This document shows positions 1 to 4,882 of a DNA stretch of 4,882 nt, piece by piece (position 1 is the first letter of the stretch; each line of letters starts with the position of its first letter). The DNA is from a virus (taxonomy: Duplodnaviria > Heunggongvirae > Uroviricota > Caudoviricetes). The notes under the pieces were generated by a model. The model worked only from the letters and a program-made list of their open reading frames with translations, had not been told where the DNA came from and did no database searches. Where the stretch lies: the IMG/VR virus record IMGVR_UViG_2602041586_000004. The stretch is one strand, 5' to 3'. The translations under genes were made by a program, and so were the position numbers.

Positions 1-42
1 TATCTGAACATAAAACACTATCAATAAGTTGGAGTCATTACC
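1..42 (+). mobile_element. IS1 right terminus: last 42 bp of the element, including the insB 3' end (1..27, ...YLNIKHYQ stop) and the right inverted repeat
   Basis: Window starts with tatctgaacataaaacactatcaataagttggagtcattacc, which matches the recalled 3' end of IS1. Reverse complement of 20..42 is ggtaatgactccaacttattg, the IS1 right IR. Flanking DNA begins at 43. Confidence 0.85.
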
Positions 43-170
43 AGGCTCCTGATACAAATAGTTTTCTTCTAACAAATAAAGAATACTTATATGGTAAATT
101 TGGTATAAACGGATGGCAAAAATATGTACGATTCTTACGTGCATTCGTTGATGCGTATAAAAATTCCGAC

Positions 171-596
171 ATGATTTATACATATTTGCCTGGTGGTGAT
201 AATTGTACGCTTTCGGCAGACAATAGAATATTCATACCTATACTTGGTCTTGGGCTGATTAATGCAGTAAATGAAAGAGATGTTATAATTGTTAAGCAGT
301 GGCGAAAGCATGAGGGATATAGATATCTGCCATGCTTTGATATATTAAAAATACAGAATAAATTCTATGTAAAAATTAAATATAAAGAAGATGTTTTCTT
401 CCTCAGAAAAAACAAAGATCTTTTACAAGAACTTTCTGGGACAATAGATGTCATCGTAGGTTCTAGGTTTATAAAAGAACTGAAAGAAAGCAGGTCTTTC
501 TCTCGTGTAGAGATAAGCGAGTCAGAGTTATGGGGTATATCAAATAATCCTGTAAACCACGCTCACCAACGAAATCCAAACAAAAAGTGGTCATAA
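171..596 (+). CDS. Hypothetical protein, AT-rich; probably the 3' portion of a larger gene interrupted by IS1 (frame open from 45 to the IS1 junction)
   Basis: 141-codon ORF from ATG 171 to TAA 594..596. The same frame has no stop between 45 and 170, and the other two + frames hit stops at 50 and 70. There is no start codon between 43 and 171 and no clear Shine-Dalgarno before 171. GC is visibly much lower than in the lambda-like block. It sits where lambda carries ral, but has no resemblance to Ral or any family I recognise. Confidence 0.55.
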   Translation: MIYTYLPGGDNCTLSADNRIFIPILGLGLINAVNERDVIIVKQWRKHEGYRYLPCFDILKIQNKFYVKIKYKEDVFFLRKNKDLLQELSGTIDVIVGSRFIKELKESRSFSRVEISESELWGISNNPVNHAHQRNPNKKWS

Positions 597-619
597 CCCG
601 CTCAAGCGGGTTTCATTTT
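597..619 (+). terminator. Rho-independent terminator directly after the AT-rich ORF
   Basis: cccgc (597..601), loop tcaa, gcggg (606..610), followed by tttcatttt (611..619). The T-tract is only on the + strand. Confidence 0.6.
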
Positions 620-648
620 CACGCAAACAAAAGAATAAACACTGCACT

Positions 649-676
649 GTGTATTCATTCCAACGAGTGAATACAC
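649..676. repeat. Perfect 9-bp inverted repeat with 10-bp spacer (GTGTATTCA-N10-TGAATACAC); candidate operator or RNA hairpin
   Basis: 649..657 gtgtattca and 668..676 tgaatacac are exact reverse complements. Lies in the intergenic region between the AT-rich ORF and ea10. Confidence 0.4.
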
Positions 677-783
677 GGAGCAATGTCGCTCGTAACTAAA
701 CAGGAGCCGACTTGTTCTGATTATTGGAAATCTTCTTTGACCTCTAATGTGAGGGCGATTTTTTTCTGTGAGGATATGAACAG

Positions 784-1152
784 ATGTCAAACATCAAAAA
801 ATACATCATTGATTACGACTGGAAAGCATCAATAGAAATTGAAATCGACCATGACTTAATGACAGAGGAAAAACTTCACAAGATTAATAATTTCTGGTCA
901 GACTCTGAATACCGACTCAATAAACACGGCTCTGTATTAAATGCTGTATTAATCATGCTGGCGCAACATGCTCTGCTTATAGCAATTTCAAGCGACTTAA
1001 ATGCATATGGTGTTGTGTGTGAGTTCGACTGGAATGATGGAAATGGTCAGGAAGGATGGCCTACAATGGATGGTAGCGAAGGAATAAGAATTACCGATAT
1101 CGATACATCAGGAATATTTGATTCAGATGATATGACTATCAAAGCCGCCTGA
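784..1152 (+). CDS. ea10: Lambda Ea10-like early protein (122 aa)
   Basis: 369-bp ORF with GAGGA 9 nt upstream of ATG 784. Length and the 72-bp spacing to cIII match recalled lambda coordinates for ea10. Confidence 0.8.
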   Translation: MSNIKKYIIDYDWKASIEIEIDHDLMTEEKLHKINNFWSDSEYRLNKHGSVLNAVLIMLAQHALLIAISSDLNAYGVVCEFDWNDGNGQEGWPTMDGSEGIRITDIDTSGIFDSDDMTIKAA

Positions 1153-1177
1153 GCGCGGCGTTACCGCATACCAATAA

Positions 1178-1198
1178 CGCTTCACTCGAGGCGTTTTT
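1178..1198 (+). terminator. Possible hairpin plus T-tract (attenuator or weak terminator) between ea10 and cIII
   Basis: cgcttc (1178..1183), loop actc, gaggcg (1188..1193) with one G-U pair, then ttttt (1194..1198). Sits just upstream of the cIII Shine-Dalgarno at 1214..1218. Confidence 0.3.
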
Positions 1199-1224
1199 CG
1201 TTATGTATAAATAAGGAGCACACC

Positions 1225-1389
1225 ATGCAATATGCCATTGCAGGGTGGCCTGTTGCTGGCTGCCCTTCCGAATCTTTACTTGAACGAATCACCCGTAAAT
1301 TACGTGACGGATGGAAACGCCTTATCGACATACTTAATCAGCCAGGAGTCCCAAAAAATGGATCAAACACTTATGGCTATCCAGACTAA
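1225..1389 (+). CDS. cIII: cIII, lambda-type inhibitor of host FtsH protease (54 aa)
   Basis: Translates to [54 protein letters not shown], which matches lambda CIII as I recall it. AGGAG at 1214..1218. Not in the supplied ORF track because it is short. Confidence 0.9.
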   Translation: MQYAIAGWPVAGCPSESLLERITRKLRDGWKRLIDILNQPGVPKNGSNTYGYPD

Positions 1390-1501
1390 ATTCACTATCG
1401 CCACTTTTATTGGCGATGAAAAGATGTTTCGTGAAGCCGTCGACGCTTATAAAAAATGTATATTAATGCTGAAACTGAGATCAAGCAAAAGCATTCACTA
1501 A
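1358..1501 (+). CDS. kil: Kil, lambda host-killing / cell-division inhibitor protein (47 aa)
   Basis: Internal ATG 1358 of the 1232..1501 ORF gives [52 protein letters not shown] at 1344..1348. Overlaps the cIII 3' end by 32 bp in another frame, as in lambda. Confidence 0.85.
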
Positions 1502-1576
1502 CCCCCTTTCCTGTTTTCCTAATCAGCCTGGCATTTCGCGGGCGCTATTTTCACAGCCATTTTCAGGAGTTCAGCC

Positions 1577-1873
1577 ATGAACGCTTATTACATTCAGGAT
1601 CGTCTTGAGGCTCAGAGCTGGGCGCGTCACTACCAGCAGATCGCCCGTGAAGAGAAAGAGGCAGAACTGGCAGACGACATGGAAAAAGGCCTGCCCCAGC
1701 ACCTGTTTGAATCGCTATGCATCGATCATTTGCAACGCCACGGGGCCAGCAAAAAAGCCATTACCCGTGCGTTTGATGACGATGTTGAGTTTCAGGAGCG
1801 CATGGCAGAACACATCCGGTACATGGTTGAAACCATTGCTCACCACCAGGTTGATATTGATTCAGAGGTATAA
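1577..1873 (+). CDS. gam: Gam, RecBCD nuclease inhibitor, short form (GamS, 98 aa)
   Basis: [21 protein letters not shown]...[10 protein letters not shown] matches lambda Gam residues 41..138 from memory. AGGAG at 1565..1569, 7 nt before the ATG. Confidence 0.93.
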
Positions 1874-1878
1874 AACGG

Positions 1879-2664
1879 ATGAGTACAGCACTCGCAACGC
1901 TGGCAGGGAAGCTGGCTGAACGTGTCGGCATGGATTCTGTCGACCCACAGGAACTGATCACCACTCTTCGCCAGACGGCATTTAAAGGTGATGCCAGCGA
2001 TGCGCAGTTCATCGCATTGTTGATCGTCGCCAACCAGTACGGCCTTAATCCGTGGACGAAAGAAATTTACGCCTTCCCTGATAAGCAGAACGGCATCGTT
2101 CCGGTGGTGGGCGTTGATGGCTGGTCCCGCATCATCAATGAAAACCAGCAGTTTGATGGCATGGACTTTGAGCAGGACAATGAATCCTGTACATGCCGGA
2201 TTTACCGCAAGGACCGTAATCATCCGATCTGCGTTACCGAATGGATGGATGAATGCCGCCGCGAACCATTCAAAACTCGCGAAGGCAGAGAAATCACGGG
2301 GCCGTGGCAGTCGCATCCCAAACGGATGTTACGGCATAAAGCCATGATTCAGTGTGCCCGTCTGGCCTTCGGATTTGCTGGTATCTATGACAAGGATGAA
2401 GCCGAGCGCATTGTCGAAAATACTGCATACACTGCAGAACGTCAGCCAGAACGCGACATCACTCCGGTTAACGATGAAACCATGCAGGAGATTAACACTC
2501 TGCTGATCGCCCTGGATAAAACATGGGATGACGACTTATTGCCGCTCTGTTCCCAGATATTTCGCCGCGACATTCGCGCATCGTCAGAACTGACACAGGC
2601 CGAAGCAGTGAAAGCTCTTGGATTCCTGAAACAGAAAGCCACTGAGCAGAAGGTGGCAGCATGA
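1879..2664 (+). CDS. bet: Bet (Red-beta), single-strand annealing recombinase (261 aa)
   Basis: [38 protein letters not shown]... is essentially lambda Bet over its full length. Starts 5 bp after the gam stop, as in lambda. Confidence 0.96.
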
Positions 2665-3341
2665 TACCGGACATTATCCTGCAGCGTACCGGGATCGACG
2701 TGAGAGCTGTCGAACAGGGGGATGATGCATGGCACAAATTACGGCTCGGCGTCATCACCGCTTCAGAAGTTCACAACGTGATAGCAAAGCCCCGCTCAGG
2801 AAAGAAGTGGCCTGACATGAAAATGTCCTACTTCCACACCCTGCTGGCTGAGGTTTGCACCGGTGTGGCTCCGGAAGTTAATGCTAAGGCGCTGGCCTGG
2901 GGAAAACAGTACGAGAACGACGCCAGAACCCTGTTTGAATTCACTTCCGGCGTGAATGTTACTGAATCCCCGATCATCTATCGCGACGAAAATATGCGCA
3001 CTGCCTGCTCTCCCGATGGTTTATGCAGTGACGGCAACGGCCTTGAACTGAAATGCCCGTTTACCTCCCGGGATTTCATGAAATTCCGGCTCGGTGGTTT
3101 CGAGGCAATAAAATCGGCTTACATGGCCCAGGTGCAGTACAGCATGTGGGTGACGCGAAAAGATGCCTGGTACTTTGCCAACTATGACCCGCGCATGAAG
3201 CGTGAAGGCCTGCATTATGTCGTGATTGAGCGGAATGAAAAGTACATGGCGAGTTTTGACGAGATGGTGCCGGAGTTCATCGAAAAAATGGACGAGGCAC
3301 TGGCTGAAATTGGTTTTGTATTTGGGGAGCAATGGCGATGA
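2661..3341 (+). CDS. exo: Exo (Red-alpha), lambda 5'-3' dsDNA exonuclease (226 aa)
   Basis: [40 protein letters not shown]...GFVFGEQWR is near-identical to lambda Exo, with a few substitutions relative to my recollection. ATGA overlap with the bet stop. Confidence 0.96.
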
Positions 3342-3357
3342 CGCATCCTCACGATAA

Positions 3358-3771
3358 TATCCGGGTACCGCCTGTAAAGTGTTGCGTGATCAAATAGGCA
3401 AGCATCACAAATGGGTGTTTGTACATACCAAGGCGGCTAAGCGAGCAGATGGAACATCAACGCCTGCGGTCAGGAAGATGCGCATCGACAGCAAGACATC
3501 ATGGCTATCAGCTTGTCGTCGTGCAGGAATTGAAGATTTCCGTTTCCATGACCTCAGACACACCTGGGCAAGCTGGCTGATTCAGTCAGGCGTCCCATTA
3601 TCAGTGCTTCAGGAAATGGGCGGATGGGAGTCCATAGAAATGGTTCGTAGGTATGCTCACCTTGCGCCTAATCATTTGACAGAGCATGCGAGGAAAATAG
3701 ACGACATTTTTGGTGATAATGTCCCAAATATGTCCCACTCTGGAATTATGGAGGATATAAAGAAGGCGTAA
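3358..3771 (+). pseudogene. Tyrosine integrase, C-terminal fragment only (about 130 codons); no start codon, N-terminal and core-binding domains absent
   Basis: Frame opens at 3358 immediately after an in-frame TAA at 3355..3357. The ATG-less translation carries the H-x-x-R box ([11 protein letters not shown]) and the catalytic Tyr (VRRYAHL) but not the upstream box-I Arg region. The supplied ORF begins at GTG 3379, which is an ORF-finder artefact. It ends 15 bp before the argU 3' end, convergent with the tRNA as expected for a tRNA-targeting integrase. Confidence 0.85.
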
Positions 3772-3786
3772 CTGATTGAATTGTAA

Positions 3787-3863
3787 TGGCGCGCCCTGCA
3801 GGATTCGAACCTGCGGCCCACGACTTAGAAGGTCGTTGCTCTATCCAACTGAGCTAAGGGCGC
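3787..3863 (-). tRNA. argU: tRNA-Arg, anticodon UCU (77 nt including encoded CCA)
   Basis: Reverse complement is GCGCCCTTAGCTCAGTTGGATAGAGCAACGACCTTCTAAGTCGTGGGCCGCAGGTTCGAATCCTGCAGGGCGCGCCA. It folds as a cloverleaf: 7-bp acceptor stem, anticodon stem ACGAC/GTCGT, loop CTTCTAA with anticodon TCT, T-loop TTCGAAT. Confidence 0.92.
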
Positions 3864-3894
3864 GTTGATACCGCAATGCGGTGTAATCGCGTGA

Positions 3895-3922
3895 ATTATA
3901 CGGTCAACCCTTGCTGAGTCAA
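3895..3922 (-). promoter_or_regulatory. Sigma70 promoter for argU: TTGACT-N16-TATAAT
   Basis: On the minus strand, -35 TTGACT is at + coordinates 3917..3922 and a perfect -10 TATAAT at 3895..3900, with a 16-nt spacer. The -10 ends 31 nt upstream of the mature tRNA 5' end, consistent with a short processed leader. Confidence 0.6.
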
Positions 3923-4105
3923 TGGCTTTTGATCTGGTTGCTGAACAAGTGAACGACCGCGTCTGATTTTCTGATTTATTTCGCTATAGTGGCAAACAAA
4001 CGCACACCGCTGCGCGTCTGAATCAAGAAAACCCGTATTTTCATGTATCAAAGTACAATTTACCGCCCTAACGGAAAATTGTCCGCTCCTATGAGACTGG
4101 TAACT

Positions 4106-4738
4106 ATGAAACCAACGTCGGTGATCATTATGGATACTCATCCTATCATCAGAATGTCTATTGAAGTTCTGTTGCAAAAAAACAGTGAATTGCAGATTGT
4201 CCTGAAAACGGATGATTACCGCATAACCATCGATTATCTCCGAACCCGTCCTGTTGATTTAATCATTATGGATATAGACTTGCCCGGAACAGACGGTTTT
4301 ACCTTCCTGAAAAGGATCAAACAAATCCAGAGCACAGTGAAAGTGTTATTTTTATCATCGAAATCAGAATGCTTTTATGCTGGCAGAGCGATACAAGCTG
4401 GTGCTAACGGTTTTGTCAGTAAATGCAATGATCAGAATGATATTTTTCATGCCGTTCAGATGATCCTCTCCGGATACACGTTTTTTCCTAGCGAAACGCT
4501 TAACTATATAAAAAGCAATAAATGTAGTACGAATAGTTCAACGATCACTGTGCTATCTAATCGTGAAGTGACCATATTACGTTATCTGGTTAGCGGATTA
4601 TCTAATAAAGAAATTGCCGATAAGTTATTACTTAGCAATAAAACAGTTAGTGCGCATAAATCTAATATTTATGGCAAGCTAGGTTTGCATTCAATTGTAG
4701 AGCTTATCGACTACGCCAAATTATACGAATTAATATAA
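4106..4738 (+). CDS. fimZ: FimZ, NarL/LuxR-family response regulator of fimbrial expression (210 aa)
   Basis: From ATG 4106: MKPTSVIIMDTHPIIRMSIEVLLQKNSELQIVL... with a receiver domain (phospho-acceptor Asp in IIMDIDLPG) and a C-terminal LuxR-type HTH (SNREVTILRYLVSGLSNKEIADKL...SAHKSNIYGKLGL). fimZ lies next to argU in E. coli K-12. The in-frame ATGs at 4043 and 4091 are probably not used. Confidence 0.88.
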   Translation: MKPTSVIIMDTHPIIRMSIEVLLQKNSELQIVLKTDDYRITIDYLRTRPVDLIIMDIDLPGTDGFTFLKRIKQIQSTVKVLFLSSKSECFYAGRAIQAGANGFVSKCNDQNDIFHAVQMILSGYTFFPSETLNYIKSNKCSTNSSTITVLSNREVTILRYLVSGLSNKEIADKLLLSNKTVSAHKSNIYGKLGLHSIVELIDYAKLYELI

Positions 4739-4760
4739 TATTAATTATAATTGATCATAA

Positions 4761-4882
4761 GGTGATGCTGCCAACTTACTGATTTAGTGTATGATGGTGT
4801 TTTTGAGGTGCTCCAGTGGCTTCTGTTTCTATCAGCTGTCCGGTGATGCTGCCAACTTACTGATTTAGTGTATGATGGTGTT
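4761..4882 (+). mobile_element. IS1 left terminus: left IR and insA start (GTG 4816), truncated after 81 bp, followed by a second IS1 left end running to the window edge
   Basis: 4761..4841 matches recalled IS1 positions 1..81 (ggtgatgctgccaacttactgat...cagctgtcc). 4842..4882 restarts with the same 41 nt. The insA frame from GTG 4816 reads MASVSISCP, then runs into the second copy and stops at 4861..4863. Confidence 0.85.
4761..4882. repeat. Head-to-tail direct repeat of the IS1 left end, 81-bp unit, 1.5 copies
   Basis: 4842..4882 is identical to 4761..4801. The first unit is exactly 81 bp. Confidence 0.8.

Follow-up and report, generated by a model that had tools for sequence, protein, structure and literature searches.

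The cIII-kil-gam-bet-exo block of a lambdoid prophage remnant at the argU locus of Escherichia coli: a recent, decaying and most likely silent early-left segment

Introduction

The genes ea10, cIII, kil, gam, bet, and exo belong to the pL operon of phage lambda and phage 434. In our study, this block was examined in a stretch of 4,882 nucleotides (IMG/VR virus record IMGVR_UViG_2602041586_000004), called the window below, where it occupies positions 784–3341 of a prophage remnant. In phage 434 the order is pL, nutL, N, a Nun-like gene, a terminator, and then ea10 through exo. Transcripts from pL pass the terminators tL2a, tL2b, and tL2c only if they have been N-modified at nutL. The block of the window shares with lambda and phage 434 the same genes, order, and overlaps (96–100% protein identity), the cIII thermoregulator RNA, and the intergenic terminator hairpins, and its DNA is 98.2% identical to that of phage 434 over window 43–3367. 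Unlike both phages, the remnant is devoid of pL/oL, nutL, N, and cI and of orf60a through xis and the 5′ two-thirds of int; its GamL frame is shifted, and its Kil protein carries the substitution W34C.

The cryptic prophage DLP12 of E. coli K-12 is similar in its argU site next to fimZ and in its intD integrase family. Its late genes ylcI, ybcV, nohD, rusA, quuD, essD, and rrrD are also carried by sister genomes of the window, and both elements are immobile and decay by deletion and by the activity of insertion sequences (IS). The K-12-type state has kept intD and lost the Red genes, whereas the remnant has kept Red and lost int and xis. Strain 7A, which shows the K-12-type state, contains a 3′ piece of exo of ~280 nucleotides fused to a replication-gene fragment; this piece presumably matches exoD of K-12.

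Engineered recombineering prophages of the DY380 and CC4506 type (cI857-pL-N-kil-gam-bet-exo) are likewise non-excisable and contain kil-gam-bet-exo in the native order (PMC3961180). They keep cI857, pL, nutL, and N and are therefore tight and inducible, and prolonged induction is lethal through Kil, whereas the natural remnant has none of these four elements. The Rac prophage, with recET and kilR, also combines recombination genes with a small division-inhibiting toxin, unexpressed in a defective prophage (KilR: PMC12482147). It differs in its locus, in encoding RecE/RecT instead of Exo/Bet, and in keeping the repressor and promoter region that is deleted in the remnant. The recET genes stay silent until sbcA mutations activate them.

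An earlier note, made from the letters of the window, had described an intact cIII-kil-gam-bet-exo module in an immobilised, IS-bounded remnant, and had named read-through from upstream across IS1, a moron promoter, or silence as candidates for its expression state. In the present work, all genome counts are among 5,426 complete E. coli genomes. We found that the block is probably the surviving early-left segment of a recent, decaying remnant, most likely silent, and not a maintained system.

Results

The window was found to be E. coli chromosome at the argU/fimZ locus with a DLP12-type cryptic prophage remnant (Table 1), and its positions 1–4760 were present in complete E. coli genomes at 99.9–100% identity. 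No pL/oL, nutL, N, or cI was found in the window, which confirms what had been said earlier of pL, N, and cI. As regards its regulation the block does not qualify as a pL operon, since a search for pL, oL, nutL, and N showed none of the four. The exact junction between IS1 and position 43 (IS1/nun′) was present in nine genomes, all of which were inspected, and in all nine of these complete genomes pL, N, and cI were absent beyond the left IS1. The upstream mapping thus shows the block to be orphaned, and an ordinary complete prophage lay upstream in none of the nine. At least five different left flanks occurred among the genomes sharing boundary 43: ylcI-ybcV with packaging or tail remnants in three, IS3 in one, a truncated ninX in one, and the chromosomal gene cusS, at varying distances, in four. 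In EC190486, CH4784, and 13P484A the genes ylcI and ybcV, the IS1 transposase, and the block were co-oriented. In EC190486 (L001 1831–12804) several chromosomal genes close to the remnant were pseudogenes (vgrG and nrfB were frameshifted, and nfrA contained an internal stop), and copies of IS1 and IS3 were abundant; erosion driven by IS elements seems to be general in the lineage.

The scan of the window for promoter consensus sequences gave 14 sites against 9.6 ± 3.5 expected, which is at chance level. On the + strand 5′ of the block no promoter-like site scored above 9/12, and three sites with 9/12 were found at 175–364. Hybrid promoters formed with the IS1 end scored at most 8/12 over all five junction types, the best at the junction of the window being 7/12; the outward -35 box of IS1 activates neighbouring genes only with a correctly spaced -10 box (PMC8764528).

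Of the terminators, two good hairpins (595–612 and 1176–1195) and two weaker ones (737–766 and 1526–1543) were retained. The hairpin at 595–612 had a folding energy of -10.9 kcal/mol (z -2.98) and a U-tract, and that at 1176–1195 was kept in every carrier still having cIII. The stem at 737–766 was weakened by two substitutions as compared with lambda (GCCCTC to GACCTC): its left arm (739–745) read GACCTCT in the window and in strain EM18-18-42, and GCCCTCC in lambda, phage 434, and NT1F25. We take 737–766 to stand at the position of lambda tL2a and 1176–1195 at that of tL2b, which a literature search did not confirm; the assignments of tL2a, tL2b, and tL2c presumably follow Luk and Szybalski (1983) and the Lambda II map.

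The Rfam match to the cIII thermoregulator was full-length, with a score above the gathering score of 50. The Rfam search of the window showed nothing beyond this element and the tRNA; a Plastid-ycf2 match opposite the tRNA strand scored under the gathering threshold and was rejected as noise. The strong hairpin at 647–680 sits ~100 nucleotides 5′ of ea10. Its columns were invariant in the window, phage 434, lambda, and NT1F25; no U-tract was present downstream, and neither an Rfam match nor an annotation in phage 434 was found for it. A role in the processing or stability of the pL RNA is conceivable.

Table 1. Features of the window, with position, strand, and the evidence for each.
Feature	Position	Strand	Evidence
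IS1 right end (right inverted repeat, IRR)	1–42	+	Direct sequence reading; IRR ends mapped
Nun-like gene, 3′ part (~184 of 289 codons), cut by IS1	43–596	+	98.2% identity to phage 434 CPT_434_48
Intrinsic terminator-like hairpin directly 3′ of Nun-like gene	595–612	+	7-bp stem with 5 GC pairs, then UUUCAUUUU
Strong hairpin, 14 bp	647–680	+	-23.1 kcal/mol, z -4.98, 0/200 shuffles as good
Terminator 5′ of ea10, annotated in phage 434	737–766	+	Weak fold, z -0.71
ea10 (DUF2528), 122 amino acids	784–1152	+	Pfam PF10800, E 4e-46; 119/122 identical to lambda
Intrinsic terminator-like hairpin between ea10 and cIII	1176–1195	+	8-bp stem, then UUUUUCGUU
cIII thermoregulator RNA (translational control of cIII)	1212–1270	+	Rfam RF01804, 88.5 bits, E 2.3e-21
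cIII (FtsH inhibitor), 54 amino acids	1225–1389	+	Pfam PF02061, E 1.5e-30; 54/54 identical to lambda
kil (FtsZ/ZipA-directed division inhibitor), 47 amino acids	1358–1501	+	Pfam PF06301, E 2e-20; 45/47 identical to lambda
GamL N-terminal extension	1456–1576	+	DNA comparison with lambda and phage 434
gam, GamS form, 98 amino acids	1577–1873	+	Pfam PF06064, E 3.4e-65, profile 1–98 of 98
bet (Red-beta/RecT-family single-strand annealing), 261 amino acids	1879–2664	+	Pfam PF03837, E 2.7e-33
exo (lambda exonuclease), 226 amino acids	2661–3341	+	Pfam PF09588, E 6e-30; 221/226 identical to lambda
exo/intD deletion junction	3366–3369		Alignment segments to EM18-18-42 meet at 3366/3367
intD (DLP12-type integrase) C-terminal fragment, pseudogene	3368–3771	+	Pfam PF00589, profile positions 79–171 only
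argU, tRNA-Arg(UCU)	3787–3863	-	ARAGORN (tct); Rfam tRNA, 72.1 bits
fimZ, chromosomal, outside the prophage	4106–4738	+	Pfam Response_reg and GerE; annotated fimZ in identical locus
IS1 left end, 83 nucleotides, then second IS1 left end	4760–4842, 4843–4882	+	Direct sequence reading

The decay of the prophage could be reconstructed from the sister genomes. EM18-18-42 was found to contain a near-complete argU prophage with cI (434-type), N, the Nun-like gene, ea10 through exo, orf60a, xis, and intD, which differed from the window at 3 of 3,325 nucleotides (~0.1%). The ancestor thus appears to have been a lambdoid argU prophage with phage-434 immunity and with an integrase and late region of the DLP12 type. 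As the comparison of sister genomes shows, a first deletion fused the 3′ flank of exo with the 3′-terminal third of intD, with loss of xis and most of int. It covers ~2.2 kb (orf60a, xis, and the 5′ part of int; L004 23326–25533) with a microhomology of 2–4 nucleotides, and the resulting exo/int′ junction was found in 18 genomes, at one place in each; it was absent from the GTDB species representatives and from the metagenome contigs of the Joint Genome Institute (JGI). A second deletion then ran from ninB into N. The ninB′/′N fusion of Res13 and ES2 corresponds to 4.26 kb (L004 15190–19450), and with it ren, P, O, cII, cro, cI, oL/pL, nutL, and the first ~33 codons of N were lost, so that both genomes keep just a 5′-truncated N, without nutL. 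The promoter and antitermination were therefore lost before the arrival of IS1.

The W34C change arose in kil as the next step, followed by a single insertion of IS1 into the Nun-like gene, which lies between N and ea10, with a target duplication of 9 bp (AGGCTCCTG). The right copy of the duplication is window 43–51, the left copy AGGCTCCTG ends the left junction in Res13, and the site is single-copy in EM18-18-42. Deletions adjacent to IS1 on both sides completed the course, and the window kept the original right junction, with all that lay to the left gone. The right boundary of IS1 was at 43 in the window, 193 in Res13, 938 in ES2, 1046 in AB66, and 1101 in PCN061; ea10 was truncated or nearly lost in three genomes, and in the two Res13 genomes the Nun-like fragment was shorter by another 150 bp. 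Adjacent deletions that leave the element without direct repeats are a known behaviour of IS1 (PMC9330008). A separate dam′/′exo deletion, which takes ea10 through bet plus the first 170 nucleotides of exo, was found in four of the 18 genomes (W21, GPEC206-621, 2015-01-2097, and BKQ37E).

The carriers differed from the window by 0–3 substitutions over 2–4.7 kb, so that hardly any inactivating mutation is to be expected as yet. The intact frames reflect recency, the divergence from the near-complete relative being as small as given above. The new point mutations of the carriers in ea10 through exo comprised four nonsynonymous or nonsense changes (kil W34C, ea10 M117I, bet Q32*, and exo P71S) and three synonymous ones. 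The bet Q32* change of S1-INA-02-B (L019), a C to T equivalent to window 1972, is the earliest case seen in the lineage of a Red gene knocked out by a point mutation. In contrast, the bet allele imported by NT1F25 differed from that of the window by ~4 nonsynonymous and ~16 synonymous changes, a ratio that is the signature of purifying selection in active phages. The mutations of the carriers look unconstrained and, together with the deletions, argue against selection for retention. Intact frames were accordingly rejected as evidence of selection, in view of the ~0.1% divergence, the deletions in sister genomes, and the nonsense mutation. The clustering of IS1 endpoints 5′ of cIII was also set aside as such evidence, since the endpoints coincide with an AT-rich stretch; the guanine-cytosine (GC) content of this stretch was 0.33–0.38, as against 0.50–0.52 in gam through exo. 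IS1 is said to prefer AT-rich targets.

Foreign alleles were found in three carriers: 47 differences clustered at window 605–2882 in NT1F25 (L013 4290–6570), 15 at window 1640–3018 in CH4784 (L014 5320–6700), and further ones in bet and exo of 300081 (L020). All three kept both junctions and identical flanks. The clusters are gene-conversion patches from other lambdoid phages, and they fit the documented exchange between temperate phages and defective prophages (PMC3945230).

All six genes of the block were intact and of lambda type. The five lambda-like frames named in the earlier note were indeed complete, as the Pfam matches and the identities to lambda show; the count itself is six, the frame starting at 784 being the unnamed ea10 and cIII starting at 1225. 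Bet was identical to that of lambda at 260 of 261 residues and to that of phage 434 at all 261, and bet lies directly 5′ of exo with an overlap of 4 nucleotides (2661–2664). The translation of exo contained W24, R28, D119, E129, and K131, of which D119, E129, and K131 are the catalytic residues of the PD-(D/E)XK fold, in a numbering that we take to be that of the lambda Exo structure. The description of gam as intact holds for the 98-residue GamS frame, which was identical to residues 41–138 of lambda Gam at 96 of 98 positions. It does not hold for the 138-residue GamL frame of the lambda reference, where an additional T near 1563 puts the extension out of frame with gamS. The same T was found in EM18-18-42 and not in lambda, phage 434, or NT1F25. 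Since a near-complete prophage has the same frameshift, it is not a sign of decay; it suggests that some lambdoid phages can do without GamL. GamS by itself binds and inhibits RecBCD (PMC5218532). By every sequence criterion tested, the block can be assigned to the lambda Red/cIII/kil gene set. If expressed, its proteins would very probably be functional, except perhaps for Kil W34C.

The kil gene was full-length and differed from that of lambda by W34C (T at 1459) and I37M. The codon of residue 34 (window 1457–1459) encodes tryptophan in lambda, phage 434, EM18-18-42, and the patch of NT1F25. With a probe of 36 nucleotides that needs a match at 1459, the C34 allele was found in 13 genomes, all 13 being carriers of the remnant, and in none of 50,697 phage records. 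The tryptophan was kept in 73 of the 74 homologue cluster representatives aligned there, among them those of the divergent short '...AYRKWRSK' subfamily. The residue is part of helix 2 (21–38) of the predicted helix-turn-helix core and falls within the minimal active region 1–36 (PMC11762379). W34C is the sole fixed coding change of the remnant and is located in the only toxic gene of the block. By our own estimate, a substitution placed at random in the phage part of 3.3 kb would be a nonsynonymous kil change with a chance of roughly 3%. This is suggestive, but only weakly so given the number of possible 'interesting' targets. The substitution may disarm the toxin.

The remaining features surround the block. 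The IS1 transposase frame enters the window from the left and its stop codon is inside the window; in the identical locus L001 of EC190486, the IS1A transposase coding sequence lies on the + strand immediately 5′ of the window start. The Nun-like gene occupies the place of ral and sieB in lambda, and its counterpart in phage 434, of 289 amino acids, is annotated as 'Nun C-terminal peptide-containing protein' (the HK022 Nun peptide). Its open reading frame in the window (171–596) ends with VNHAHQRNPNKKWS, and the fragment 43–596 had a GC content of 0.33. The Pfam search of the fragment gave no match, and the Prokaryotic Genome Annotation Pipeline (PGAP) calls a hypothetical protein of 141 amino acids in it.

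The lambda-like homology ends at ~3367, where the C-terminal third of intD starts. The integrase was found to be destroyed, as the earlier note had stated: its open reading frame (3379–3771) is a C-terminal stump of 130 amino acids, which PGAP annotates as partial with a missing N-terminus in identical genomes, and the fragment 3368–3771 aligns, with 100% identity, to genes that bear the annotation intD in many genomes. The argU gene is the attachment site (integration at its 3′ end) and the right boundary of the remnant. Upstream of it, on the - strand at 3922–3895, is a near-consensus sigma-70 promoter (TTGACT, 16-nucleotide spacer, TATAAT; 11/12), presumably argU's own.

The label 'IS-bounded' thus fits the left side, which an IS1 end abuts, and not the right side, where IS1 (4760–4882) lies beyond argU and fimZ, outside the prophage. 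The tandem left ends at 4760–4882 have the appearance of one IS1 inserted into another at position 83. AB66 has the same fimZ/IS1 junction, with one full IS1 followed by an IS1 of 696 bp without its first ~72 nucleotides. It is 100% identical over window 1046–4841, but has a further deletion reaching into ea10. Among the complete E. coli genomes, none had both the IS1/43 and the fimZ/IS1 junction.

Discussion

In our study, we found that ea10 through exo have been left without pL, their only known promoter, and without antitermination by N and nutL, while the terminator of the Nun-like gene and those of the tL2 type persist. The best-supported reading is that the block is transcriptionally silent, with at most weak leaky read-through. 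Silence is most likely because pL and N/nutL were lost while the terminators remain, and of the three candidates proposed earlier it fits best, as no promoter was found and the terminators stand without N or nutL. No repressor would be needed, as nothing is left to repress. A moron promoter, if the Nun-like gene ever had one, would lie in the lost DNA 5′ of the point where IS1 cuts the gene. Transcripts reading in from upstream would need to traverse IS1, whose insertions are classically polar in either orientation, and would then meet several terminator hairpins with neither N nor nutL to help them past. Some points weigh against silence. It is inferred from absent signals, and the upstream finding rests on the nine genomes that share the left junction of the window. 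The consensus scan may miss weak promoters, or those dependent on sigma-S or regulated by H-NS, in the AT-rich region 43–783. The terminator resembling tL2a is weakened in the allele of the window, and with ylcI and ybcV upstream in the same orientation in three carriers some read-through is conceivable. All four rightward IS1 deletions stop 5′ of cIII, and the toxic gene has the only coding change that became fixed, at a near-invariant residue; both could hint at expression and selection, past or present.

The nearest alternative, which we consider unlikely, is a leaky constitutive expression that yields Ea10, cIII, Gam, Bet, and Exo in small yet real amounts, made tolerable by Kil W34C. Transcription would begin in the ylcI-ybcV region, at the promoter of the IS1 transposase, or at spurious promoters of the AT-rich Nun fragment, and the transcripts would pass imperfect terminators. 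The co-orientation in EC190486, CH4784, and 13P484A, the three 9/12 sites at 175–364, the weakened tL2a-like stem, the outward -35 box (PMC8764528), and the restriction of W34C, at a near-invariant residue, to this lineage all agree with it. However, the promoter-like sites are no more than chance, the best hybrid promoter at the junction reaches 7/12, and the good terminators at 595–612 and 1176–1195 remain without N or nutL. The bet Q32* change and the deletions in sister genomes show that the products are dispensable, and the polarity of IS1 in both orientations also speaks against leakage. It is quite improbable that the block is, or recently was, weakly transcribed (for instance out of IS1, by read-through, or by way of cryptic promoters of the Nun fragment), that W34C is an adaptive, detoxifying change which this expression brought to fixation, and that the lineage carries a naturally domesticated, repressor-free Red system with kil disarmed which measurably raises recombination at short homologies or with incoming lambdoid phages.

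Even less can be said for a domesticated module, in which the host keeps cIII through exo under selection, for instance for recombinational repair, DNA acquisition, or interference with incoming lambdoid phages, and W34C is an adaptive detoxification; we regard this as very improbable. Full-length cIII–exo frames are kept in 14 of the 18 exo/int′ genomes, bar the one bet nonsense mutation, and the endpoints of the four independent rightward deletions would all fall 5′ of cIII with a probability of ~0.01 if they were uniform over 43–3786 (own calculation), to which Kil W34C may be added. Yet these endpoints lie in the AT-rich part, in keeping with the reported preference of IS1, the block is lost in four genomes and bet interrupted in one, and the ratio of 4 nonsynonymous to 3 synonymous changes fits relaxed constraint. 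The lineage, at ~0.1% divergence, is too young for intact frames to be informative, and a promoter was not found. The idea that the IS1 copies at the window ends form a composite transposon, with 4.7 kb (the Red genes, argU, and fimZ) mobile between them, is highly improbable; what speaks for it is the direct orientation of the ends at 1–42 and 4760–4882. The segment stands at its normal chromosomal place, from the argU prophage to sfmF, in every relative, a second copy of it was not found, and each genome has one junction place. Among the genomes examined, the fimZ/IS1 junction of the window occurred only in AB66; no IS1 directly followed fimZ in ten other relatives examined past that gene, and the IS1B beside fimZ in EC2641 has only 90% identity. 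The left IS1 is without a left target duplication, through adjacent deletions. The composite transposon was rejected on the native position in all relatives and the deleted outer flank of the left IS1.

Three further claims had been made for the block. The kil gene had been called toxic; it is not wild type and carries W34C at a near-invariant residue. The retention of the block had seemed noteworthy, and this is not supported by a sequence 3 of 3,325 nucleotides away from a near-complete prophage, in a lineage whose sister genomes are losing the block. An unusual recombination proficiency of the isolate was likewise not supported: the lambda-type cIII–exo block, at a coverage of at least 80%, was present in 3,122 genomes (58%), so that Red genes in a natural isolate are the rule and not the exception.

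The object is of an ordinary, already-known kind with a well-resolved decay history, and it decays by classical processes, namely deletion at microhomologies and deletion next to IS1. Its value is modest and lies in a clean natural time series, in which 18 genomes record how a prophage at one site was eroded step by step, with the joint loss of the immunity region and pL among the steps. The gene-conversion patches show that remnants of this kind continue to exchange DNA with active lambdoid phages. Kil W34C is the single point worth a small experiment; if it inactivates Kil, a critical residue would be identified in a peptide now studied as an inhibitor of FtsZ/ZipA.

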